A DNA stretch of 35,443 nucleotides, taken from Caldisericia bacterium (GTDB lineage: Bacteria > Caldisericota > Caldisericia > UBA6126 > JAGPKI01). The stretch covers positions 1 through 35,443 of the forward strand of contig JAGPKI010000002.1 of the NCBI GenBank assembly GCA_018054005.1. Direction: 5' to 3'. The number at the start of each line of letters is the position of its first letter. The stretch's first letter is position 1. The notes beneath the pieces were generated by a model. That model had not been told where the DNA came from. It worked only from the letters and a program-made list of their open reading frames with translations, and did no database searches. This document shows, in pieces, positions 20,166 through 35,443 of this stretch. The position numbers and the translations under genes are program-made.

Positions 20166-20259
20166 TGGCGGAGAAGGCGGGATTCGAACCCGCGAGACAA
20201 GTTTGATCTCGTCTACTCGCTTTCCAGGCGAGTGCCTTCAGCCACTCGGCCACCTCTCC
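20166..20259 (-). tRNA. tRNA-Ser (GGA), class II with long variable arm, CCA encoded
   Basis: The reverse complement is GGAGAGGTGGCCGAGTGGCTGAAGGCACTCGCCTGGAAAGCGAG...GCGGGTTCGAATCCCGCCTTCTCCGCCA. Anticodon arm is CTCGC-CTGGAAA-GCGAG. Confidence 0.9.
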
Positions 20260-20383
20260 AAAACTACAATAAATTTTAATATATCGGCATATTATACCAA
20301 AAAGAAAACATAATTTCTTGATAAATTATATTATATTATATTAAGAAGTATTATTTGGTAAAATATATCTATTTATTTTTAAA

Positions 20384-20467
20384 GCCGAAGTGGCGGAATT
20401 GGCAGACGCGCTAGGTTCAGGTCCTAGTGAGGGAAACCTCTTGTGGGTTCAACTCCCACCTTCGGTA
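20384..20467 (+). tRNA. tRNA-Leu (CAG), class II, no encoded CCA
   Basis: Sequence is GCCGAAGTGGCGGAATTGGCAGACGCGCTAGGTTCAGGTCCTAGTGAGGGAAACCTCTTGTGGGTTCAACTCCCACCTTCGGTA. Anticodon arm is CTAGG-TTCAGGT-CCTAG, the variable arm is GAGG-GAAA-CCTC, and the 1-72 pair is G-U. Confidence 0.85.
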
Positions 20468-20831
20468 TTTTGTCTGTGGATAAAATAGCTACATATAAAG
20501 AGTTGATTTTATTTTTTCAATATCTAACAAGATTTCTGGATTTCTTAATTTTATAACAGATTATAATTATGTAACTCTGTTTATATTACCTTCTTTAGTT
20601 CATTAGGTCAATATAAATGAAGTTTTTCGATAATTTTATCACATATTTGAACTATATAATATTACTAATATTAGATTATGAGTTTAAATACTTATTAAAA
20701 TTTTATAGAGTTATTGACCTGTCCTCCTAAAGTATTTTGCAAATTATCAGAGCAATAAAAAACAAGTTAAAGCAAATGTATTATTTAATAGTCGTTCTTA
20801 TTATGATACTTTTCAACATTTTATTAACTTG

Positions 20832-20905
20832 TCGGGATGATGGGATTCGAACCCATGACTTCTTGGTCCCGAACCAAGCGCTCTACCAAACTGAGCCACA
20901 TCCCG
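20832..20905 (-). tRNA. tRNA-Pro (CGG), no encoded CCA
   Basis: The reverse complement is CGGGATGTGGCTCAGTTTGGTAGAGCGCTTGGTTCGGGACCAAGAAGTCATGGGTTCGAATCCCATCATCCCGA. Anticodon arm is CTTGG-TTCGGGA-CCAAG. Confidence 0.9.
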
Positions 20906-20919
20906 TTGGAAATAAAAAA

Positions 20920-20997
20920 TGGTCGGGGCGAGAAGATTCGAACTTCCGACCCCCAGCACCCCATGCTGGTGCGCTAGCCAAACTACGCTACGCCCCG
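20920..20997 (-). tRNA. tRNA-Pro (GGG), CCA encoded
   Basis: The reverse complement is CGGGGCGTAGCGTAGTTTGGCTAGCGCACCAGCATGGGGTGCTGGGGGTCGGAAGTTCGAATCTTCTCGCCCCGACCA. Anticodon arm is CCAGC-ATGGGGT-GCTGG. Confidence 0.9.
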
Positions 20998-21033: not shown

Positions 21034-22317
21034 TCAAAATTTTCTGAGTCTTACCCAATCAAATGCTTCTATTGTATACTTTATAAATTCTCTAAGTTCT
21101 AAATAATTATTTTCTATTGAAGCGTTTAGAATGCTATTATAAAGAGATGTTTCTATATTAAAATTCCTGTATGCAGACTTATAAACATTTAGCAATTTGT
21201 CGAATATAAGTTCGAAATCTTCTATTCCAAATTTTCTCAAATCAATTCTATTTTTTATTGAAGGAGAAATTTTTATATCTTTTAGAGGAGTTGTTGCAAT
21301 TACAAGAAAAATATAGGGTTCTTTATAGGAGTAAGGAGTAGGACGAACTTGATTGTGAGCCATAGAGTAATTTATTTTTCGAAGTTTTTTATCATTAAGG
21401 GAAATCCCAATAAGTCCATTCATAAAGTTTAATCCACGCGTATAAAGTTCATTATTCCAGATATGAGTAATTTCTTCAAATTCATCAATAATTATTACTA
21501 AGCCGCTTAATTCTAATTGTCTAACAATATAACTTAAACCACTTATAATGTAGCAATAAAAATCGGCAGCTGTCGAAAAATCGTACAATGCTGGTATAGC
21601 TTGCCCTCCCTTTACACGATAAGGTGAAAACTTAGATGTAGCATACTCTTTAGTAGATTCTCCCTCAATCCATTGCCAGAAAACTTCACTTTTTGAATCA
21701 AGGTTATCCAGTTCCTTCACCCTATTTATAACAGGAGTAAAAAAGCAATGGTCATCAATTTTAAGTTTTGTTGCTTCAATTAAAATATCTCTGAAACTAT
21801 AATCATAGTTATCCCTAATAAAGTGTAAGTTGTAAACAAGCTCATGATACACCTTTTTAGGTCTGAAGGGTGGAGTTTCTTGAGCATGTAGTTCGCAATA
21901 AGTTGTGGCAAAACCTTCTTTCAAAGATAAATGCCGAAAATATTCTAAAAGGTGTGACTTTCCAGAACCATATCCTCCCTCAATCATACAAACATCACTT
22001 ATGCCGTTTCTTAAGTTTTCTAATCCATTCTTTAATAGATTAATTTCTGCTTCTCTGCCAAATGTAAATAGTTCTATATCTTGATGAGGAACAATTCCCA
22101 TTCTAAACGACTCAAGAATTCTTTTTGAAGAGATTTCATCTAAATTAATTTCAGAATCTTCTTTTACTTTAATTGGCTTTAACCATTTTGTAGGAAGCCA
22201 CAAATTTAATCCATTCAGAAATTTAACTCTTGCTTCAGTTCCATCCCAGCGTGTTTCAAGCACAACACCTTCACCAAATATGTTGTGGATGACAAGCTTA
22301 GAATTCTTCTCCTTCAA
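21034..22317 (-). CDS. BrxD/DUF2791-like P-loop ATPase with an N-terminal Tudor/SH3-like module (third gene of operon)
   Basis: 427 aa. Walker A GGYGSGKSH (21955-21978) and Walker B VIIIDE (21481-21498). The pre-P-loop segment RILESFRMGIVPHQDIELFTFGRE matches the pattern I recall for DUF2791/BrxD. Residues 1-50 (VIHNIFGEGVVLETRWDGTEARVKFLNG...) resemble the UvrD/PcrA C-terminal Tudor or DUF3553 motif. TTG start overlaps the upstream gene by 20 nt. Confidence 0.65.
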   Translation of the reverse strand: MKEKNSKLVIHNIFGEGVVLETRWDGTEARVKFLNGLNLWLPTKWLKPIKVKEDSEINLDEISSKRILESFRMGIVPHQDIELFTFGREAEINLLKNGLENLRNGISDVCMIEGGYGSGKSHLLEYFRHLSLKEGFATTYCELHAQETPPFRPKKVYHELVYNLHFIRDNYDYSFRDILIEATKLKIDDHCFFTPVINRVKELDNLDSKSEVFWQWIEGESTKEYATSKFSPYRVKGGQAIPALYDFSTAADFYCYIISGLSYIVRQLELSGLVIIIDEFEEITHIWNNELYTRGLNFMNGLIGISLNDKKLRKINYSMAHNQVRPTPYSYKEPYIFLVIATTPLKDIKISPSIKNRIDLRKFGIEDFELIFDKLLNVYKSAYRNFNIETSLYNSILNASIENNYLELREFIKYTIEAFDWVRLRKF

Positions 22318-23560
22318 CCTCTTCCCTCTCTTTTTGAATTAGTGATTTAGCAGTTGAACGGAATAACTCTCTTGCAGTTGATTTATCGATAGGTGTATTG
22401 TTTACTTTAATCCTTTGGAATGCCTCTATTACTGCGATAACAAATATTCTCCTGTAACTTACATCAAGAAACTGTGATTCAAGTGAAACATTAATTATGT
22501 TTCTCAAGGACTCTTCAAGGACTTTATTATTAAAATCATAAAAATATGCAATCTCATATATTTTTGCTAATTTTAGTCCCAATTCCTTTAAAAATTCAGA
22601 TGGAGAAATTCCTATATCTTCAAGATTAATTTTTACTCCCATAGGATTAACTTTGGTAAAACTTGAGCGAAGACGCTGATTTAAAGCTTCGTAAACACCG
22701 CCACTTCCTTCAAGAAGTAGATTTTCATCGGGTATTGCATAGAAAAACATAGCTCCTGGAAGTTTTGAGTTTCCGCATTCGTCTATTATTTGCCTTAAAT
22801 TATCTAAAGCTCTTCTTCTATCTCGAGATGAGGATATGCTCATTCCTCGTTCAGCTTCGTCAAATAAAAATATAATTCCTGAATAGCCAATCAAATTTAC
22901 AAATTGAACCAAACTTCTTAGCATTCTGAAGGCATTAGTTCTATCAATTCGCTCGGATATTCTATATTTATATTTAAGGTCTCTCGAGATATCTTCTCCT
23001 TTAAGCCATTGTGCAAGCGAATAAAAAAGCTCTTCATCATCGTTTGAGAGACCTGATAAAGCTCCTTTTGTAGCATTCACAAAACTAGTACTTTCAAGGT
23101 TTTTGATGAGGGATAAAAAATTCTTTTCTTCTTTTACCTGTTCATACCATTTCCTTAAAAGTGCTTCTATACCAACTTCCCAAGGTTTAAGTATTTCCGT
23201 TGTACTTAATGGTGGAGTAATATTTAAAGCGATGTTTCTATAAACTAATTCTAATCTATCAAACGGACACTCTGTTGCACTTAAGCTAACATAACTTGTT
23301 ACATAATTATTTTTCCAAGCGAGATCTCTTATCAGGTAAAGAAAATGAGATTTACCACCTCCATAATTACCAACAATTAACTTAAATGATGATAAGTTGT
23401 ATTTTAAAATATCATTTAAATATTCATTTTCAATAACATTTAAATAAGGTTCAAGCCCAACATTAAAATATTCAACTCCTACTTCTGGAGGTGTGCCTGA
23501 ACTACCCAGTTTATGGATTATTACTTTTGCAAGTTTAGGGTCTAAATCTAATTCATTCAT
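22298..23560 (-). CDS. BrxD/DUF2791-like P-loop ATPase, paralog of the downstream gene (second gene of operon)
   Basis: 420 aa. Walker A GNYGGGKSH (23348-23371) and Walker B IIFLFDEAE (22853-22876), followed by an Arg-rich SSSRDRRRALDNL segment. The N-terminal KVIIHKLGSSGTPPEVGVEYFNVGLE aligns with the equivalent segment of the 427-aa protein. Confidence 0.65.
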   Translation of the reverse strand: MNELDLDPKLAKVIIHKLGSSGTPPEVGVEYFNVGLEPYLNVIENEYLNDILKYNLSSFKLIVGNYGGGKSHFLYLIRDLAWKNNYVTSYVSLSATECPFDRLELVYRNIALNITPPLSTTEILKPWEVGIEALLRKWYEQVKEEKNFLSLIKNLESTSFVNATKGALSGLSNDDEELFYSLAQWLKGEDISRDLKYKYRISERIDRTNAFRMLRSLVQFVNLIGYSGIIFLFDEAERGMSISSSRDRRRALDNLRQIIDECGNSKLPGAMFFYAIPDENLLLEGSGGVYEALNQRLRSSFTKVNPMGVKINLEDIGISPSEFLKELGLKLAKIYEIAYFYDFNNKVLEESLRNIINVSLESQFLDVSYRRIFVIAVIEAFQRIKVNNTPIDKSTARELFRSTAKSLIQKEREEVEGEEF

Positions 23561-23571
23561 CTTTTTTATTC

Positions 23572-24465
23572 TTAAAACAATACTTCTCTTACTTTATTCT
23601 CTGTCTCAATTGAAATATATGAATAATATGTCCCGTCTCCTTCGTCGTTATCAGGAATCCAGATAGAGTTTTTTTTATCTCCTGTTGCATCAAAAGTAGC
23701 TACATAAAACTTTAGTCCCTTAACTGCATTATTCGATTTTCGCAAAATGTAAAGAAGATAAGATAATTTTATCCTTGAATAGTCTCGAAAATTTTCTTTT
23801 TTAGGGTCGGTAAAGAATTTTTGAGGTTGTTTAATGAAAACAAATTCATTCAGAACTTCAATAATTGGCAACTTTTCACCAATTATTTTTCCAGTTAATA
23901 ATAGTCTTCTCTTGTAAGCTTCCGTAAAATCCTTAAATAGTTCAACAGGATCTATCTTTTCGCTATTAAGCTCCTTATCAAATTTAGTTATTGAATCATA
24001 AATAGAAGTTGGATTTAGAGGTATTTTTGATTTTATCTTCTCCACTTCAGGACCAAAAAATAATTGAGCCTCTCCAAACTCAAAGTTAAGTTTTATTGTA
24101 TACATTCCAACTCTCAATGTTGGATACTGTCCTTTAATGGTTTTCCCATCTTTTTTAAATAAATCACTTAATTTTTCACCAAAACTAAATCGGAAATCAT
24201 CTTTTGCTTTCTCTAAAATCTCCTTTTCATCGTTAATAAGATTTAAAATTGAGGTTTTAATTGGGAAAGGTGGTAAAACATCAGCTAATTTGGTTATCTC
24301 AGTTAAATTCTTTTCAGCCAAATAAGCATTATCTAAAAGATTTTCTTTTGACTTATTATATTTAGCTAATAATTTTAACACTTTATCTAAATTTTTTGTG
24401 AGTGATTTAATGTTATCAATTATTTCTTTCACAACACAATTATATAAATAACAATAAAAAATCAA
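23572..24465 (-). CDS. Hypothetical protein, N-terminal coiled-coil-like region, no motif recognised (first gene of operon)
   Basis: 297-aa ORF 11 nt upstream of the first ATPase gene. The only possible starts are TTG 24465 or GTG 24432, and there is no clear SD. Coding is supported by length in AT-rich DNA and operon packing. Confidence 0.55.
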   Translation of the reverse strand: MIFYCYLYNCVVKEIIDNIKSLTKNLDKVLKLLAKYNKSKENLLDNAYLAEKNLTEITKLADVLPPFPIKTSILNLINDEKEILEKAKDDFRFSFGEKLSDLFKKDGKTIKGQYPTLRVGMYTIKLNFEFGEAQLFFGPEVEKIKSKIPLNPTSIYDSITKFDKELNSEKIDPVELFKDFTEAYKRRLLLTGKIIGEKLPIIEVLNEFVFIKQPQKFFTDPKKENFRDYSRIKLSYLLYILRKSNNAVKGLKFYVATFDATGDKKNSIWIPDNDEGDGTYYSYISIETENKVREVLF

Positions 24466-26025: not shown

Positions 26026-26215
26026 ATTACTCTTGCAATATCAATATGCATGACTCTGTCTTGCTTAAGTTTATAATATTTTTACCATCCTCAGTTATAA
26101 TCCAGAGATATGGTCCGCTATTCTTTAAATAACCTTAATACAAACTGTCCAATTAATTAGGGGGCTGGAACACCATTTCCAAAAGTGATTTCATAAAAAA
26201 CCTTTTCAGAAGCAA

Positions 26216-27595
26216 TTAATATTTAACCAGAAAAATATAGAAAAAAGAGCTGTTCCATAATATTCCAAAAGTAAATGCTACGAAGTTAGCTATTAATAAA
26301 GTGAGAAAAAAGAGCACATTTTCCAAACGGTTTACTACTTTTTTAAGCCAATAAATTATTTTTCTAAACCAGTAAATTATTTTACTTTCACTGGATAATA
26401 TTTCTCCTACATTAGAGTTATTGTGCGGGTTGATCTGAGAACCATTTTTTTGAAATGAGAAATAGAAAGGAAGAATATAAGTAATGGGTACAGCAACAGA
26501 CATCCAGAAAACAACATTTACTTCTATTTCATTCCTAACTGAATATAGAAAAGAAATAAAAGAATCTTTTTGGCAAAGATACAAAAATAAAGACATAAGA
26601 GCAACAAGCTGAAGAGGTACAACTATTTCTTTCTTTTTAAATATTAGCATTATAAGAAATGAAATAAGAATTATTGATAATGCAAATATCAGAAAATAGG
26701 ACGGTGGATTAGTTATAAATTTTGCGAAAATAAGTTCAAAATCAGTAAGTAAATGTTTTCCACTCAATTCGAAATATTTAGCATCAAAAAATAATCTTGA
26801 ATAAATTCCTAAAAGGAGTGTTACAAAAAAGGAAGGCATTAGAAGGCACAAATAAACTAATTTAAGAAAAGGCTCTATTGTTTTTGTACTGTTTCTAATA
26901 AATGAGACTGATACTGTAAGAATAAGTAAGAAAGTAGCAATATAGATAAAGAAGTAAAAAGGAGAAGTCATTATATTCTTAAAAAAGATAAAAAGAATGA
27001 GCTGGACCAGGAGAAGAAGGCATGCATAGTAAGAGGAATATTTACCAGCAAGTCTTGCCAATGCTCCGTTAGAATAGTTATTAAGCTCTGAAGTTATTAT
27101 ATTTTTTCTCCTTTTTACGCAAATCCAGCTCATGAGTATTAATAGCAAACAAATATCTACCAATATAACCCATACAGGTATTTTATTTAAGAAAAGCAGC
27201 ATATCCTCTGAAGAACCAGATATTTTCAAAGTTTCTATCATAGGAGTTAGTGCTATTCCGGAAAGAAATGAAGAATAAAACAGTAATGTAGACCAGAGAA
27301 AAAGACCTGTAACCAGTGAAAGAGTAAAAAAATCGGTGTTGTAATGTCTTGTATTTATTAAGTATGGTAGAAATCGAAAAATAATGAAAAATTCTATAAT
27401 ATGGCAAGAACCGATTAAGACAGATCTAAAAGCTGTATAACCCAGGGGGTATCTCGATAAATCAGATTGAAACAAGGAATAGTGACCATTAAAGTATAAA
27501 AAGGAAAATAGTGAGAAAAAAAATGAAATAAATAAGAGTAAAGGCAAACTCCTCATTATGATTATGTCTTCTGTTACTTTGTTATTATTTTCCAA
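26216..27595 (-). CDS. Polytopic integral membrane protein of unknown function (about 12 predicted TM by eye)
   Basis: 459-aa ORF that is almost entirely hydrophobic segments, with no soluble domain or catalytic motif recognised. Start is uncertain (TTG 27595 or ATG at the MRSLPLL position). Lies 104 nt downstream of direct-repeat copy 1. Confidence 0.7.
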   Translation of the reverse strand: MENNNKVTEDIIIMRSLPLLLFISFFFSLFSFLYFNGHYSLFQSDLSRYPLGYTAFRSVLIGSCHIIEFFIIFRFLPYLINTRHYNTDFFTLSLVTGLFLWSTLLFYSSFLSGIALTPMIETLKISGSSEDMLLFLNKIPVWVILVDICLLLILMSWICVKRRKNIITSELNNYSNGALARLAGKYSSYYACLLLLVQLILFIFFKNIMTSPFYFFIYIATFLLILTVSVSFIRNSTKTIEPFLKLVYLCLLMPSFFVTLLLGIYSRLFFDAKYFELSGKHLLTDFELIFAKFITNPPSYFLIFALSIILISFLIMLIFKKKEIVVPLQLVALMSLFLYLCQKDSFISFLYSVRNEIEVNVVFWMSVAVPITYILPFYFSFQKNGSQINPHNNSNVGEILSSESKIIYWFRKIIYWLKKVVNRLENVLFFLTLLIANFVAFTFGILWNSSFFYIFLVKY

Positions 27596-27698
27596 AATAT
27601 CTTAACTTTTTCTCCTTTCGACGATTATCATCTTAAATTGCTTTTAATTATATAATTATATTTATATAGCTCACATTTAACTTCCCCCATTTCTTTGG

Positions 27699-27825
27699 AC
27701 AGAAATTAGCATAAATCAAAGTGATAAATTTTAAAGTCTCATATGTTTCGTAACTTATTCATTAGTATTTATTGTCTATTACATTATTTTTGATAAATAT
27801 CATCGTTAGTTATATCGGGAATTTA
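27699..27825. repeat. Direct repeat copy 1 (127 bp, identical to 35317-35443)
   Basis: Base-by-base comparison shows 127/127 identity with the last 127 nt of the window. Identity breaks at 27698 versus 35316. The far end is undetermined because copy 2 is cut by the window end. Confidence 0.95.
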
Positions 27826-27851
27826 GGTTAATATTTCCAGTACTAAAATCG

Positions 27852-28067
27852 CTAATAGTGCATTGAAGATAGAGAGTAAGAAAGCCAAAAACAAATTGCT
27901 TCCTTCACATTCTTTATAATTGGTATATTTCTATAACTTGCAGGAATAGGAATTTCAGGAAATATCACTGGCAGTAATAATTTAGTATTTGGGCGACTAA
28001 TCTTTTTAAAAACTAAAGATAATAATGGAAGGATAGAAATAATTGAAGCAATCACAAGGAGAAGCAA
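27852..28067 (-). CDS. Small hydrophobic hypothetical ORF (possibly a gene fragment)
   Basis: 71-aa TTG-initiated ORF. The same frame is stop-free up to about 28183. One TM-like segment (LLLLVIASIISILPLLSLVF); no RBS or family recognised. Confidence 0.25.
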   Translation of the reverse strand: MLLLVIASIISILPLLSLVFKKISRPNTKLLLPVIFPEIPIPASYRNIPIIKNVKEAICFWLSYSLSSMHY

Positions 28068-28213
28068 TCCTATCTTTCCGAAGATATAAACATGAACTGA
28101 TAATGAAGGTAAAATATAGCCATCCGAAGCATGTTTATAAAATTTTAACTGTATACTTCCAAATAGTATATGATGATGTTCTTAATATTAGGCCTCCACC
28201 AAAATAATATATT

Positions 28214-28357
28214 TTAGTTTTCAAGGTATAAATGAATTTTAAAAGTTATTATTTTTGAGTTGGTTTTCAGAAAAGCTGACTTATTACATAAAGTGAGAAA
28301 AAAGAGTAAGTTTTTCCAATATTGTACACTCGCTTTAAACCAATTAACAATTATTTT
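28214..28357 (-). pseudogene. 3'-terminal fragment homologous to the polytopic membrane gene at 26216-27595
   Basis: Plus-strand 28288-28350 aligns by eye with 26296-26362 (shared ATAAAGTGAGAAAAAAGAG...TTTTCCAA...AATTATTTTT). The fragment translates as KKIIVNWFKASVQYWKNLLFFLTL, compared with RKIIYWLKKVVNRLENVLFFLTL in the intact gene. An in-frame TAG lies directly upstream and there is no start. Confidence 0.5.
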
Positions 28358-28419
28358 TTTCTATTTTTAACATTCTCTAAAAAGCTACTAATTTTAAAAA
28401 TAGTTGAAAACTCTTCTTT

Positions 28420-29748
28420 TTAAACGAAGAATATAGCCCTTAATGTATTTAATAAGTTTAAAATGAACAGGAAAGAAAAATATTTCTTTTTTGAATATTT
28501 AGACGGATTGAAAAAGAAGTCAAGCTTGTCAGTCTTTTTCAGAAAAAAAGTTACTACTTTATCCACAACGTAAAAAGTTATTAGAATAACAAAACCACCC
28601 ATCAAACACCATAATAATAAGATTGGTAGTCTATTCATAACTATTGAAGTAGCCATATTGTCAACACTTATCGTATAAGATTGAAAAAATGTCAAAATCT
28701 TACTTATATATAAATTATTGGAAGCAAAGAGTAAGACGGAGATCTGTTGTAGAATTGAGCATAGAAAAACCCAAAATAGACTATTGCTTTTGTGCTTGAA
28801 AAGCAAATAGCTTAAAGTAATAACTATTAAAGATAGTGTGTAACCTATATAAGGTCTGTAGAGTTTAAATAAAGGTTCAACTTTGAAATTAAAAGGAGTA
28901 ACAAAAAGATTAAATCCTCTTGAAAGGGCATATGGAGTAAAGACAAATAGTAGAAGTAATAGAACAACAAATATTGAGTGTTTCTTTATATCTATTTCAC
29001 CCAATGAGTGGTTTTGGTTAGAATTTAAATCCTCATTATCTAAAAGATAAAATTTAAAAAATAAATATAATAGGAAAATCCCGAAAGAGTAATATAGCAA
29101 TATTATGGTTCTTAAAAGATTATTGGAAACTTTATTAATTAATTCATAGAAAAGATATGGCATCAAAACAAGAAAAATTATAGATATAATTAGAAATGGA
29201 ATACCAAATCCATTGATTATAAATGGGTCATTAAAAAGTAATGGTCTTATATTTTCAGAAGAGTAGCTACTTTTTGTTTCATTTGTTATTTCTATTTTTC
29301 TCTCCTTGCTCCACCAATTTTGAATTTTTAAGTAAAAAGCAAAAATAACTATTAAACACACGGAAAAAATTATAGAAAGATAGATTCCAAGATTAATAGG
29401 AGGTTTTAATAAGTCTTTTTCCCATTTGAAAAGAGTAGAAATATTTAAAAATAGGATATAAAATAAAATCAGAAGCGTTGGAGAACTAAGAGAGAATTTA
29501 ATACTTTTCAGATCGGATAATATTTGCCATATGAAATTCAAAAAGGATGTTGCAGTAAGTCCTAAACCTACAATTGCCAAAATAACTAATAATATTATTG
29601 CTTCAGTAGAGAAAGTTGAATAGGGAGTAAATATTTTAAAAATCAGGTTAACTGTTATTACCCCGAACACACCAATGAAAATAGTTAAAAAAGTTATAAG
29701 TAAAGATGTACCTCTAATTTTCTCTTTACTAATACTAAGGGATTTCAT
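28420..29748 (-). CDS. Polytopic integral membrane protein translationally coupled to the Rhs toxin gene (candidate immunity protein)
   Basis: ATG at 29748-29746 overlaps the Rhs TGA (29747-29745) as ATGA, giving MKSLSISKEK..., 442 aa with about 12 hydrophobic segments. The ORF-track start at 29805 lies inside the Rhs gene. Confidence 0.7.
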   Translation of the reverse strand: MKSLSISKEKIRGTSLLITFLTIFIGVFGVITVNLIFKIFTPYSTFSTEAIILLVILAIVGLGLTATSFLNFIWQILSDLKSIKFSLSSPTLLILFYILFLNISTLFKWEKDLLKPPINLGIYLSIIFSVCLIVIFAFYLKIQNWWSKERKIEITNETKSSYSSENIRPLLFNDPFIINGFGIPFLIISIIFLVLMPYLFYELINKVSNNLLRTIILLYYSFGIFLLYLFFKFYLLDNEDLNSNQNHSLGEIDIKKHSIFVVLLLLLFVFTPYALSRGFNLFVTPFNFKVEPLFKLYRPYIGYTLSLIVITLSYLLFKHKSNSLFWVFLCSILQQISVLLFASNNLYISKILTFFQSYTISVDNMATSIVMNRLPILLLWCLMGGFVILITFYVVDKVVTFFLKKTDKLDFFFNPSKYSKKKYFSFLFILNLLNTLRAIFFV

Positions 29749-32700
29749 TTTCCACAATTTCCGCCACTGGGATTTTCTAAATAAGTTGGAACAGTTTGTG
29801 CCCATAAATCTTTAAGTCTACTATCGTATTTTTCAGATTTTTGGAAAGCTTTTTTAACATTGGTGATGTTTTCGCCAATTTTCGAGCAATCATTACTCCA
29901 CTGTTGTGGATGACACATACCCCAAAAATTATAATTTATATAAATCTGTGACTCTCGAGAACTATATACACAGGATAAACTAGTGAATTTTCCAGTTGAA
30001 TCTTGTCCGTTCATTTCGAGAAGTTTTTTACAAATTTTTTGGCATGTGCTAACTACATTATCCATCGCTTCTATATGAGAAGTTGATTGAGAATTGAAAT
30101 AGCCATATATGCTATATGCGCAAGCTATTAATGATGCTAATCCTATAGCTATGCCTGCAGCAACAGCTGAGACAGCAATACCTAAAACGGAAATAGTACC
30201 ACCGCCCCCTACTAAAGCTGTATAAAGTCCTGCAATAGCAGATCCACAACTAACAGCTATTCCTGTAATATCACTCCAACGGAATGAGGAGCCTTTTGCT
30301 GTAGCTAAATTTGATAGCATTTTAGATATTAAGTCGTTCATTTCGCAATTAAGAGTACAACACTTCTCCTTAGACACTAAACCCATTGGATCGATTTTAT
30401 TTACGGGGTCATTTTTGCAGTAGTGGTAAGAATGAATAGTCCACGGATCAGACAAAATCCCTGGACCCCAGATATCCGCTGTTAAAAACCTACATGTGGT
30501 AGAATCATACATTCTTGTTCCCATAGAATACATTTCATCTACTGGTGGAGATTCATATGAGATTGGGGTTGGTTCATAATAGCTTCCAGCAAACTTAAGA
30601 GGATTATAAGAAATTCCTTCACTGTGCTCTATAGTTCCGTAAGGATAATATCCATTTTTTGCCTTAAGTGGCTCATTTAGCAATGGATCATCTGTAGTTC
30701 CAACTACAGAACCAATATAATCATTGTAAAAAAGTTCACTATAAAGTCCTTCACCCGATATACCAGGAATAGGATTTACCTGCATAAGAATCGGAGCTGT
30801 TGCATAGTAAGTGTAATTTAATAGTAAATTATCAGTTGGATCATTTGTGTCCCCTTCTCTAAATTCGCTAATTAGATGTTCACCTTCATAATAGAAAGAT
30901 CTATCACCCATACCTATTCTTCTACCCTCTACATCGTAAGCGATATCTGTAAAATCAATAATATTACCCGCTTGGTCATAAACTTTTATATTTTTTGGAA
31001 AATTTAAAGGACTATACTCTATATGTATTTCATTTTGAAGTTCTCCGTTTGGTGCAAAGTTTTTAATCTTTGTTGGACCGAGCATAGCGTTAATGTCGGG
31101 GTATTCAGGAAGATTATAGAAATATTCTGAAGTTGAAGAGTCAGGATTAGTTACTTCTGTTACTCTATTCATTTCATCATATTCGTAGTGATATGCATAA
31201 GTACCAGTTGGATCTGTAAGAGTTTTTCTTGTCATATTACCACCTATATCATATTCATAGGTGCAGACTTTGTCTCCACGGTAAGCTTTAGTTAACTGTC
31301 CATATGTATCATATTCGTAAAACCATCGAGTATCACTTGTTATTCTATGCATTGAATCATAGGTATATTCATAGTTCATTTCAGGATGCTTAGGATTGGT
31401 TATTTTCTTTAATCTTCCAATCTCATCATATTCATAAGTTGTATTTGTGCTTACTCTTTTTGTTAAAAGATGATCTTTATCATATTCAAAAGTTTCGACT
31501 ACACCGAAAGGAAGCGGTTGATTATTTTTATCAAAGTATTTTTCTTCAATTTTTGTTACATTAAAACATTCATCGACAGTATAATGAATAGATCTTCCAC
31601 TATAATTATATAATTCAGATGTTGCATCATCCGGTTTTATAAAATAATCGATAGGAAGTTCATCTGGATCATAACCATCCAATGTTTCAACAGAAAATTT
31701 ATTCCCGCCTGTTACTTTTCTTTCTAATTTATCACTTAGATTATAGTGATATTCAATGTTTCCAGCTTTTGTTGTTCGTCCTGATTTATCGTATTTATAT
31801 TCTATCCTTGTACCATCCCAAAATTCAATATAATCTAAAAGTCCTTCATTGAGATATCGCATCTTGTTTATCCTTCCGTAAGCATCTTTCATCTCTTTTG
31901 GGTATCTTTCTCTGCCAGGTTCTGTTTCATAAGTATATTCGCGTACGATATTTCCATAATAATCAATTACTTTTGATGTTCTTTCATTTTCATCATAGAT
32001 TATACTAAATTGTGGTCTCCCTCTCTCGTCAATTAAGCTTGAAAGCTTCCCTTCTAAAGTATAATTATACCCTACTCTTTTTCCGTTCCAATCAATTTCT
32101 AGCATTCTGCTATATCTATCATATTTATATTTTGTTTCTGTCCCGTCAGGATTTATTAGTTTTGTAAGATTACCATTTGCATCGTATTCATAGTTGGTTT
32201 CTCCGTAAAAATCTTCCGTTTTTGATATTTTACCACAGCATTGAGAAAATGTTATTTCGTTCCATTTTCCTTCCGGTGAACTAATTTTTACACTTGTCCC
32301 TGACGGATATTCAATGCTGAATTCACTATTACATGCATCACTAATACTAATTAAGTTATTTTGAGCATCATATATTAATTTCATCTTTCTTCCAGCCGGA
32401 GTTATTATTTCTTTAGTCTTTGGAAAAGAATCATCTTCTAAATTGTAAGTAATATTAGTTATATTTCCGTTATTGTTTATACTAATTAAATTTCCATTGA
32501 AGTCGTAAATTACAGTACTTTGCGAAATAGCTGGGGTTATCATTGAGAATTGAGTCTGAATTATTTCTCCTGTTTCTGGGTCAAGCAAAATTGTTCTTGT
32601 AGTCGTGTATTCTCCGTTAACATAATCTTTTAAGTAATTTGGGAAGTTATGGTCAATATAGCTTATAATCGTGTAAAGCTCTGGATTTTCTGCCATTCCA

Positions 32701-35101
32701 ATAATATTATTGCTTGAATCATATGAATAGATTAAAACATCTGCAGATGAAGGATAAATTGTTCTTTCTTCAGTTAAAATTCCATCTTCTCTGAAATGAA
32801 CCTGATTTTTTATGTTGTTTTCATTTATTACTTCTGTATAATTTGAGTAATAGTTATATATCTCACTTAGGCCTGTCTCATCGTGTGAATTTAAGCACTT
32901 TCCATTCTGAGCACAATCATAATACCATATTGAACCTCTTGGGTCAGTAACAGAAAAGACATTATCATTTTCATCCCAGCCAAAAGTCATAGAAAAGCCT
33001 TTACTTGAGAAGATTTGGGTAAGTTTATCTTGAGAATAAGTATAATTTACTGAACCGTCTGGATATGTTATACTTTCTACTTTTCCTGTTACATCATAAT
33101 TTATAGTAGTTGTGCTTCCATTTGGATTTGTTATAGTTGTAATTCTATCAAAACCAAAGATATTTGACCAGCCAAACTGAGTTTTGTATCCTTTACTTTT
33201 GGTTTCTAATAGCCTTCCATCAAGGGAGAATTTAGTTATATTAAAATAACCCTCAGTTAATTGAAATACTCCACCAATATCCTTAATAGTCATTAAGCTG
33301 TTAGATTCAGCAATGTAGATATTTTCTGCTTGGTCATAAATAAAGTTAAAGATAGCTCCTGTTGGGTCTTTAAATTTAATATGGTCATTTAGAACAATGT
33401 CAAAAAGAGAAGATTCAAGTAGGCTTATCCTCTTCTTACCAAACCATCCAGTATCTTCTGACCTGCTATTATATAAAGAGGTTATAGTTGCATTTGCAAA
33501 TGTAGTTTTTGTGGGGTAAGGGGTGTATTCAACCTGTTCAATTATCAAATTTCCATTTCTTAAGTTTGCACTTACATCAAATACAGTTGATGGAGGATTA
33601 AAGAATGTTTCATGTTCAGAGAAGCCAAGCTTACTTTGATCACCTATTATTTCAGTATAAATTACTGTAAGAACTGTTTGACAAGTTCCTCTACTACTTT
33701 CAAATTTCATAGGAATTGGGTTTTCAGAACTATTTGGAATTCTTTCGATTAAAGCTAATCCATTATTTGAAATTGGGTCTGTAAGCCAGCCTTCAATTAG
33801 TGAATTTGGTAGAGTTACAATTGGGCTAAATCCTGATTCCCCTAAATTTGTTAAATTAATAAATCCCTGTATTGATCCAAGAGTAGGTGGAGGAATAAAT
33901 AGAGGCCCTTCTGGCCATGAAGAAGTAACATTATAAATGTCAGTAATGGGTGAAGGATTATTCCCTTTTTCTATTGGGCATAGTGAAAGAGTTGCTGAAT
34001 TTATTTCAATGTTATCTGGTAGAGTTGGTAGCTCAAACCTCATAAGAGATGTAAAAGTAGTAATAGATGAATCTATAATTTCTTTACCAACGAGAAGGTT
34101 TTCATTATAATACTTATTTCCTGCTTCATCAATGTATAAATCCTCTTCTGGTATAACTTCAAATGAAGGGTCAAGTATTACAGGATACTCCGTCTTAGTA
34201 TTTTCTAAGAATTCTTTATCAAGTCTTAACTTCAGCTGAACTTTATCTCCTTTTTCAGATAAAGTAGAGGTAAGAGCTATATTCCTGCCTTCCTTTCCTG
34301 CTTTATCTTTTAGGTTTATTTTTCCTACTTTTAGACTAAATTTCTCCTTCTTAAAAATAAATTTAGCTTCATCTTTTCCAGAGAATGAAACATTTTTAAG
34401 TCTAATATCAAAATTAATTTCACTAAGGATAGGTTTACTCTTAAATATTATCTCCTCCTTAATATTAAAAGAGGAAACTGTGTATTTTAAATCTATTCCA
34501 GAAGCTATATCCTTAAAAATAACAGAATTGCCATCAAAATCTGGTAAAGTAGGTTTAATCCCCTCCATATTAAGCTTAAGTTGAGAGTCTCCTTTAAGGA
34601 GAGAAAATATTAGATTTGACCCTTTCTTTACATCATCATTGCCAGTAAAGAATATCTTAAAGAAAGATGTATCAGAATAATAGCTATAATTAGGAATATT
34701 AGATTTCTTAATTTCAGGCTTTATCCCAATAAGACCTCTTCCACTAATAAAGGTATTAATTGGTTTAGTGTATACTTTGAGAGTATATTTATTTCCATCT
34801 TTTATTGTATTAGAAAATGAAGTCTTTTTGTAAGTTACATCATTGGAAATCTCAGTTTGTGATAAAAGTTGATTTAATCCTTGACGCTGATTTTTTGAAA
34901 GCAGATAAGCTTTGTAATTTCCACTCTCTTTAAGTGAAGAAGCAACTTTTTCATAGGGACTAAAGACAATTAAGAGAAGAATACATAAAAGAGTGACAAG
35001 AAGTCTTGATTTTAAAGGATGATTAGAAGAACTTGAGAGATTTAATTCCGTTCTCTCTCTCTCTCTGCTTGTGAAACTTTGAATCTTTTAAATGAATACA
35101 T
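29745..35101 (-). CDS. WapA-like Rhs/YD-repeat polymorphic toxin; the 5' end (RBS+ATG at 35101) is out of frame with the body at an (AG)7 tract
   Basis: The body ORF 29745-34568 (1607 aa) has many YD repeats (YEYDANGNLTKL, YKYDRYSRMLEI, YEYDEIGRLKKI, YTYDSMHRITS; about 30378-33161). It has a DNRLRE-like N-terminal domain (LMRFELPTLPDNIEINSATLSL) and the Rhs core end motif DPVNKIDPMGL (30378-30392), followed by a 210-aa C-terminal tip. The same frame stays open to 35087 with a signal-anchor-like KSRLLVTLLCILLLIVFSP but no start codon. GAGGAGG, 8 nt, then ATG at 35101 is in a different frame. Confidence 0.85.
35053..35066. repeat. Dinucleotide simple-sequence repeat (CT)7 on plus strand = (AG)7 in the Rhs 5' coding region
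   Basis: Read directly from the sequence: ccg tt ctctctctctctct gctt. Confidence 0.95.
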
Positions 35102-35316
35102 TTTTAAAACCTCCTCATATTTTAATTTTTTTGCCAAAAAACTTTTTCTAAGTAATTTGTGGGAGGATATACTGCATTCTATTTAAACACTTTTCAAGTT
35201 TAGGATCTAATTCAAAAATCTATAGAGAAATTAAAATAATAATTTTAGGAAAGTCAAGTTTTTTTATCTAAAGAGTTTTGTATTTGTAAAAATTCATACA
35301 AGACTTTGAAAGGCAA

Positions 35317-35443
35317 ACAGAAATTAGCATAAATCAAAGTGATAAATTTTAAAGTCTCATATGTTTCGTAACTTATTCATTAGTATTTATTGTCTATTAC
35401 ATTATTTTTGATAAATATCATCGTTAGTTATATCGGGAATTTA
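35317..35443. repeat. Direct repeat copy 2 (identical to 27699-27825), truncated by the window end
   Basis: 127/127 identity with copy 1. Lies 216 nt upstream of the Rhs ATG on the minus strand. Confidence 0.95.

Follow-up and report, generated by a model that had tools for sequence, protein, structure and literature searches.

The Rhs gene and its C-terminal tip

The subject of this work is the C-terminal tip of an Rhs protein encoded by a Caldisericia bacterium (assembly GCA_018054005.1, contig JAGPKI010000002.1). The window, i.e. the whole stretch of DNA that was analysed, is 35,443 nucleotides (nt) long and chromosomal, carrying nusA, infB, ftsH, tilS and thrS. According to a preliminary description of the same DNA, the 210 amino acids (aa) that follow the core-end motif of the Rhs protein form a Cys-rich glycine-zipper toxin that inserts into membranes. 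Our computational results suggest that the tip represents a very small, previously unclassified family of Rhs cargo, most likely one that attacks membranes; the glycine zipper does not define this family. The position given for the tip was exact, and its strand, on which the preliminary description was silent, is the minus strand. The Rhs gene, the parts of its tip and the two membrane-protein genes beside it are the following.

29745-34568, minus strand: Rhs/YD-repeat open reading frame (ORF) as listed, 1607 aa.
30378-30650, minus strand: Rhs-associated core domain, aa 1307-1397; TIGR03696, 54.6 bits (cut-off 32.5).
29748-30377, minus strand: Rhs C-terminal tip (cargo), 210 aa (aa 1398-1607), about 22.5 kDa, 11 Cys.
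30270-30377, minus strand: polar, weakly amphipathic N-terminal helix of the tip, tip aa 1-36, with C6, C7 and C11; the homologue P0003, described below, keeps only C6.
30093-30269, minus strand: uncharged Gly/Ala/Ser-rich helical hairpin, tip aa 37-95, with two predicted helices and a GGGG turn.
29748-30092, minus strand: polar C-terminal region, tip aa 96-210, with a predicted helix, a beta-hairpin and two helices; six Cys.
30000-30023, minus strand: LLEMNGxD motif, tip aa 119-126.
29907-29924, minus strand: WGxCxP motif, tip aa 152-157, its Cys being C155.
28420-29748, minus strand: candidate immunity gene encoding a 442-aa polytopic membrane protein; start ATG and Rhs stop codon share nucleotides (ATGA).
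26216-27595, minus strand: 459-aa ORF (446 aa as called elsewhere) of a second orphan polytopic membrane protein in the same accessory block.

The protein has the make-up of an Rhs carrier. YD/RHS repeats, which form the shell, are recognised by PF05593 (RHS_repeat, E=4.9e-39, over 5 stretches), by TIGR01643 (E=2e-30) and by TEN_YD-shell, the last being a precomputed annotation on the same protein. The end of the core reads ...RFLTAD...YHYCKNDPVNKIDPMGL (also given as RFLTAD...NDPVNKIDPMGL), and DPMGL at aa 1393-1397 (30378-30392) stands directly before the tip. Both aspartates of the self-cleavage motif are kept, cleavage itself being a prediction. The N-terminal part comprises a signal peptide and a DNRLRE domain, a combination typical of secreted and surface proteins.

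Tip residues 37-100 form a run of 64 residues without D, E, K, R or H, and 50% of them are G, A or S. The small-residue stretch that had been quoted earlier (30102-30269) corresponds to tip aa 37-93 and lies within this run. AlphaFold, applied to the single sequence, predicts helices at 3-29 and 34-57, the GGGG turn, helices at 68-94 and 100-123, a beta-hairpin and two further helices; the models have a pLDDT (predicted local distance difference test) of 48 (tip) and 52 (442-aa protein) and were used for secondary structure only. On the published Hessa scale, the insertion energy is -0.19 kcal/mol for helix B (aa 67-85) and +2.7 for helix A. The hairpin is marginal, of the type found in proteins that switch from a soluble to a membrane-bound state. 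Helices rich in GxxxG and AxxxA had been put forward as the hallmark of the tip. Inside the hydrophobic stretch we find a single strict glycine-zipper pattern (A71-G75-G79) plus one GxxxG, and the remaining small-xxx-small spacings are generic, as they follow from the composition.

Cysteines are 11 in number, where about 10 had been described. They make up 5.2% of the tip, compared with 0.79% of the Rhs core and 0.91% of the 13 other ORFs of the window. At these background rates about 2 would be expected in 210 residues, and 11 or more would occur with a probability of 1e-6 to 4e-6. Nine of them (6, 7, 11, 112, 116, 136, 155, 164 and 208) are in the polar flanks, as the preliminary description had it. 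The other two, C44 and C86 (IACA), are inside the hydrophobic stretch and both are conserved.

Homologue, neighbouring genes and known toxin families

An intact Rhs protein of 1750 aa, P0003, begins with a clear signal peptide and was found by the whole-protein search with 47% identity to the window Rhs. Judged from the alignment, its tip is a true homologue of the window tip and the sole one found. The two tips are 27% identical, the cores 47%, i.e. the tip changes faster than the core, as in Rhs polymorphic toxins. All other Rhs matches have at most 26% identity and align over the core only. Searches with the tip only gave nothing, be it a word-indexed search of 5.8 billion proteins, exhaustive phmmer against 1.84 billion representatives, pattern scans of GTDB genomes and metagenomes, or tblastn against plasmids. 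It is important to note that the tip-only searches overlooked P0003 too, so that these negatives are not absolute and remoter relatives may exist. Two transposase-like genes (DDE_5 and a faint rve match) immediately precede the P0003 gene (L042:1444-4155 region), which suggests a mobile context for this copy.

The P0003 tip has a hairpin of 56 uncharged residues, about 50% G/A/S, with one helix at -0.48 kcal/mol. It contains exactly eight Cys: five align with those of the window tip (C6, C44, C86, C112 and C155) and three align nearly (C116, C136 and C164). The Cys-rich frame noticed earlier is in this sense partly a family trait, the exceptions being the three Cys private to the window tip, C208 among them. 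Both tips keep IACA, V-x3-C-x2-I-x3-LLEMNGxD, WGxCxP and a terminal SGG, and the best-conserved block is LLEMNGxD with the preceding V-x3-C-x2-I. The P0003 tip has no GxxxG and no glycine-zipper pattern. As the motif is lacking there, it is not conserved in the family and was dropped as the defining feature; what the family has in common is the uncharged small-residue hairpin.

The genes next to the two tips encode membrane proteins. The 442-aa ORF named in the preliminary description is present directly downstream of the window Rhs gene, and its product has at least eight strongly hydrophobic segments, predicted to be transmembrane (TM), with no family match and no homologue besides itself. 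The gene is found beside the Rhs gene on 10/10 contigs examined, of 19 that carry Rhs. The 459-aa protein has at least eight hydrophobic segments and no family match either; it might be an orphan or the product of a second immunity gene. At the P0003 locus the next gene encodes a protein of ~240 aa with about four TM segments. No similarity was detectable between the 442-aa and 459-aa proteins or between either of them and the one downstream of P0003. Unrelated membrane proteins beside homologous tips are a pattern also seen in Ssp4/Sip4 and in the ionophore toxins of contact-dependent growth inhibition (CDI) (PMC12669606, PMC11630599). We consider the two unrelated membrane proteins in the immunity position to be the best single argument for a membrane target.

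No orphan Rhs tip was found in the 824 bp that separate the 442-aa gene from the 459-aa gene. A stretch of 68 nt at 28288-28355, just 3' of the 442-aa gene, is 71% identical to 26296-26363, which encodes the C-terminus of the 459-aa protein. Possibly a 459-like gene was displaced here and left this remnant, as is known where one Rhs cassette takes the place of another. Scans for promoters and terminators gave no useful signal: the sites were fewer than those in shuffled sequence.

Regarding known protein families, the view that the tip is neither a nuclease nor a deaminase holds: no enzyme family of Pfam or NCBIfam, these two included, matches the window tip or the P0003 tip, and a confident match of this kind was what the preliminary description had named as grounds for giving up its proposal. 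The window tip has no match among PDB sequences at E<=10, and neither the tip nor the membrane proteins had a meaningful PADLOC match. A structural comparison, which had also been proposed, did not help, as Foldseek of the low-confidence tip model against PDB gave nothing significant. In the literature we found no paper on Rhs in Caldisericota and none on an Rhs with a hydrophobic hairpin.

Below the thresholds, the only matches of the tips are pore-formers, namely Ssp4 and the hairpin region of MakA/Hbl/Nhe. The window tip matches Ssp4 (NF053808) with E=1e-3 and 18.4 bits, tip residues 22-106 aligning with positions 70-155 of the 280 in the profile. None of nine reversed or segment-shuffled controls of the tip (0/9) matches Ssp4, their best match to anything having E=0.025. 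We do not place the tip in the Ssp4 family, because the family cut-off is 300 bits and the P0003 tip does not reproduce the match. Ssp4 is helical, has predicted TM helices and acts from the periplasmic side (PMC12669606, PMC5792426); it needs all three of its own Cys and DsbA of the target cell (PMC5792426), and its immunity protein Sip4 is a membrane protein with four TM segments (PMC12669606, PMC5792426). Unlike the window tip, it is a stand-alone effector of the gammaproteobacterial type VI secretion system (T6SS).

The P0003 tip for its part has weak matches to MakA (NCBIfam, E=0.004, 16 bits, cut-off 320), to HblD (Hbl L1) and to alpha-xenorhabdolysin subunit A. With a profile made of the two tips, the top four PDB sequences are three MakA and one Hbl L1 (E=0.03-0.1), which belong to the ClyA family of alpha-pore-formers (entry 6ezv is Nhe L1 by its PDB label and a MakA structure according to PMC8824476). 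In this alignment the N-terminal helix and the hairpin of the tips stand opposite the MakA segment that holds the transmembrane helices and the 219-221 loop (PMC8824476). Four control profiles gave no pore-former match, the reversed profile reaching E=0.1 on an aldolase with 15.3 bits. The order of parts is alike: a long polar helix, an uncharged Gly/Ala/Val-rich hairpin of ~50 residues and a polar helix, with the hairpins in register (MakA/Hbl L1/Nhe; 6DFP, 7P3R, 7NMQ; PMC8824476). The differences are that only ~90 residues match, that the tip lacks the ~350-aa tail-plus-head fold, and that ClyA-family toxins hit eukaryotic membranes and are not Rhs cargo. We do not claim homology of the tips with the ClyA family, since the match covers profile positions 11-104 only at E=0.03-0.1 and the controls reach E=0.1 on unrelated proteins, which puts the scores close to noise. 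Taken as sequence comparison, the likeness to membrane-inserting hairpins is a coherent architectural one, short of demonstrated homology.

The link to Tse5 that had been drawn earlier is not borne out by sequence. Neither phmmer nor profile searches of PDB sequences at E<=10 gave a Tse5 match; the published Tse5 cryo-EM entry is presumably among these sequences, which makes the negative an indirect one. What the tip has in common with the C-terminal domain of Tse5 (Tse5-CT) is a hydrophobic, membrane-partitioning cargo placed after the DPxGL site of an Rhs shell (PMC10684867), self-cleavage expected to be needed, and a downstream immunity gene, here a candidate. In contrast to Tse5, which a T6SS delivers by way of a PAAR-like N-terminus, members of the window family carry a DNRLRE domain and a Sec signal peptide; at 210 aa the window tip is longer than Tse5-CT (149 aa), it is Cys-rich, and its candidate immunity protein is a polytopic one of 442 aa.

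The colicin-type pore-forming domain, which we take to be contained in Pfam-A, matched neither tip at E<=10. A hydrophobic hairpin shielded by amphipathic helices is common to colicins and the tip, by analogy only. CDI ionophore toxins (the CdiA C-termini, CdiA-CT, of E. coli EC93 and relatives) are C-termini of polymorphic toxins which dissipate the membrane potential, and their immunity proteins are very hydrophobic, membrane-embedded and diverged beyond recognition between cognate pairs (PMC11630599). They differ from the window tip in being borne by a CdiA carrier, and there is no sequence similarity; they themselves are predicted five-helix bundles with receptor-specific entry domains. 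The glycine-zipper pattern of toxins or entry motifs such as the C-terminus of EsxX (PMC12744356), the N-terminus of Tde1 (PMC10240207) and CdzC/D (PMC5380434) is shared by the window tip but not by the P0003 tip.

Reading frame, variation and setting of the locus

The annotated ORF lacks its 5' end and does not share a frame with its start codon and signal peptide; this had been missed in the preliminary description. The following features lie upstream of the called ATG.

34569-35051, minus strand: 5' continuation of the Rhs frame, without ATG, GTG or TTG; 48% identity to the P0003 N-terminus.
About 34962-35003, minus strand: hydrophobic signal or anchor segment LLVTLLCILLLIVF within this continuation.
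35052-35065, minus strand: (GA)7 dinucleotide repeat that separates the Rhs frame from its probable true start codon.
35099-35101, minus strand: probable true start codon ATG with AGGAGG just 5' of it.

The Rhs ORF as called begins at an internal Met, so that the true coding region extends further upstream, where the frame stays open for ~165 codons. In the window, the frame that starts from ATG 35099-35101 is different from the Rhs frame and meets a stop after 19 codons (MYSFKRFKVSQAERERERN*). Either (GA)6 or (GA)9 would put the start codon in frame with Rhs. Of the ten contigs that cover the repeat, the window included, seven carry (GA)7 and three (GA)8; an in-frame allele is found in 0/10. 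Among the cluster members listed no version exceeds 1607 aa, which is the length of the longest. The sampled gene copies thus appear to be switched off by frameshift. The (GA)n tract may be a phase-variable switch that was sampled in off states, or else the gene may be an early pseudogene.

Twelve alleles of the tip were compared (L032-L041 and L046 among the contigs), and these may stem from more than one copy of the cassette. The variants are C7G (8/12), G60D (4/12), E103* (1/12, contig L040) and C155F (9/12), plus one synonymous change. Because C7 and C155 are polymorphic, not every Cys of the tip is essential. The ratio of nonsynonymous to synonymous changes is 4:1 in the tip (E103* counted), 5:7 in the core and 1:4 in the 442-aa gene, numbers of single-nucleotide polymorphisms (SNPs) that are too small for a statistical test. 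Taken as they are, the ratios suggest that selection on the tip is relaxed or diversifying. The 4.8-kb Rhs ORF is still open in 11 of the 12 sampled copies despite the low GC content of the DNA (30%).

ThrS of the window is 91% identical to that of a sister Caldisericota metagenome-assembled genome (MAG), in which the gene of a major facilitator superfamily (MFS) transporter abuts prs/glmU (L047:2857-6469). In the window lineage about 9.4 kb (about 26030-35443) with the rhs, 442-aa and 459-aa genes lie between the MFS gene and prs/glmU. This block is an accessory island, as it is absent from the sister MAG. Within the island a direct repeat is present in two copies.

27699-27825: internal copy of the direct repeat, perfect, 127 bp.
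35317-35443: upstream copy of the direct repeat, cut off by the window end.

In longer contigs the repeat has at least 166 bp (L034:1-166, L035:1-148). The two copies bracket the rhs-442 cassette at a spacing of 7618 bp, most metagenome contigs of the locus break at or near the repeat, and in one contig (L033) prs is joined straight to rhs. The bracketed cassette may reflect a tandem duplication, a recombining cassette or a branch in the assembly graph.

Elsewhere in the window, four tRNA genes (Ser-GGA, Leu-CAG, Pro-CGG and Pro-GGG; 20166-20997) mark the place where the conserved thrS region meets a variable region; the sister MAG keeps the Ser and Leu tRNAs and differs in what lies beyond them. 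Directly after this tRNA cluster come two adjoining genes of BrxD/SngB-like ATPases (21034-24465, minus strand), the ORFs of which overlap by 20 nt (PADLOC BrxD, E=7e-21 and 2e-36), and after these a 297-aa ORF without a match. Possibly the two ATPase genes belong to a defence island; a complete BREX system is not seen.

Proposed action of the tip and alternative explanations

We propose that the tip belongs to a new family of membrane-inserting, depolarising toxins, carried by a Sec-exported Rhs protein and paired with a membrane-embedded immunity protein. To this proposal we give a probability of about one half. It is consistent with the canonical Rhs carrier and its DPMGL directly before the tip, with the uncharged helical hairpin that the P0003 tip has kept, with a gene for an integral membrane protein directly downstream of both tips, and with the sub-threshold matches to pore-formers. 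The absence of the rhs-442-459 block from the sister genome is as expected of an accessory competition island. Of the original idea, membrane insertion has indirect support, and the glycine zipper is not supported as the conserved feature.

From what was observed directly, i.e. gene anatomy, composition and hydrophobicity of the tip, family conservation, the membrane nature of the neighbours and the island context, we infer the following course of action. With the (GA)n tract in frame, Rhs would be made with an N-terminal signal peptide and exported via Sec, as the intact P0003 suggests. The aspartyl-protease motif of Rhs would then cut after DPMGL, and as in Tse5 (PMC10684867) the YD shell would keep the ~22-kDa tip inside. 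Once a competitor cell is met, the tip would be released and the amphipathic flanking helices would free the uncharged hairpin of 59 residues. The hairpin could insert into the cytoplasmic membrane from its outer face, singly or as an oligomer, so that ions pass and the potential collapses. The eight family-conserved Cys, two of them in the hairpin helices, might stabilise the soluble or the inserted form by disulfides or a bound metal; this step is speculative, with Ssp4 as a precedent. The translationally coupled 442-aa polytopic protein would shield the producer within its own membrane.

Several observations weigh against this proposal. The likenesses to pore-formers are below significance, with 16-18 bits as compared to 15.3 bits for the reversed-profile control; they involve low-complexity hydrophobic sequence, and the match to Ssp4 is not seen with the P0003 tip. 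The AlphaFold model of the tip has low confidence (pLDDT 48), and with it Foldseek found nothing in PDB below E=0.37. The best-conserved motifs (LLEMNGxD and WGxCxP) are in the polar C-terminal part outside the hairpin, which would fit a separate effector domain. The proteins downstream of the two tips are not detectably related, and 442 aa with at least eight TM segments is much larger than the known immunity proteins to pore-formers. The locus may be inactive in the population, given that the start codon is out of frame in 10/10 contigs spanning the repeat, a stop codon interrupts the tip in one allele, and 9/12 alleles have Phe in place of the conserved C155.

The main alternative is possible, on the unlikely side, and divides the tip in two. 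The hairpin would only tether the effector to the membrane or carry it in. The effector proper, the C-terminal ~115 residues with their Cys, would act as an enzyme or by binding, on the outer side of the membrane (e.g. on lipid-linked cell-wall precursors) or in the cytoplasm. The most conserved blocks of the family, V-x3-C-x2-I-x3-LLEMNGxD and WGxCxP, are polar and follow the hairpin, in a part where AlphaFold predicts a mixed alpha/beta unit, but neither C-terminal region matches an enzyme family. WGxCxP would offer C155 as a candidate nucleophile, yet this residue is Phe in most alleles, and H156 next to it is Lys in P0003. Separate modules do have precedents: in the DNase effector Tde1 the GxxxG stretch is needed for translocation and not for catalysis (PMC10240207), and in CdiA-CT toxins the entry and toxin domains are distinct (PMC11630599). 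Against cytoplasmic enzymes, however, the protecting protein is normally soluble, and both downstream genes encode integral membrane proteins.

It is unlikely, though conceivable, that the locus is decaying or silenced in the population, with no exported Rhs protein being translated and a tip subject to drift. The start codon without an in-frame repeat allele ((GA)7 in seven contigs, (GA)8 in three) and the lack of cluster members above 1607 aa would agree with such a relic, as would the excess of non-synonymous changes in the tip (four, with E103*, to one synonymous; core 5:7, 442-aa gene 1:4) and Phe in place of the family-conserved C155. On the other hand, the SNP counts are too low for a statistical claim, and a 4.8-kb ORF has stayed open in 11/12 copies in DNA of 30% GC. 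The repeat varies in length as at phase-variable loci, a single-unit change is enough to bring (GA)7 back into frame, and the homologue P0003 is intact.

Very improbable is a hairpin that serves as the C-terminal membrane anchor of an adhesive or structural Rhs/YD protein in the producer's own envelope: the signal peptide, the DNRLRE domain and a hairpin hydrophobic enough to span a membrane would suit this role, but the hairpin follows an intact DPxGL motif, the place of encapsulated Rhs cargo (PMC10684867), divergence is faster in the tip than in the core (27% vs 47% identity), and a translationally coupled downstream gene and the island location fit a toxin-immunity pattern.

The membrane-inserting toxin can also be drawn in a more far-reaching form, which we find quite doubtful as a whole. 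In this form the family would consist of cysteine-framed alpha-helical pore-formers with a hairpin anciently related to that of ClyA/MakA, exported via Sec on Rhs from a phylum in which we know of no T6SS, countered by unusually large polytopic immunity proteins and controlled by slipped-strand switching of the (GA)n tract.

Orphan tips of polymorphic toxins are very common, and the immediate value of this one is that of a defined candidate, not of a surprise. To our knowledge, examples of Rhs with membrane-attacking cargo are very few, chiefly Tse5, and all come from T6SS-bearing Proteobacteria. If the proposed action is true, the tip would be a second, unrelated family of membrane-inserting cargo, with an Rhs exported via Sec as its carrier, in an anaerobic phylum that is uncultured. 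Should the (GA)n tract prove to be a real switch, it would exemplify an interbacterial toxin under phase-variable control. With about 210 aa and eight conserved Cys, the tip would be a compact model for the question of what keeps so greasy a hairpin in solution until its release. It would also mean that the Rhs cocoon is used more widely for toxic, aggregation-prone membrane proteins.

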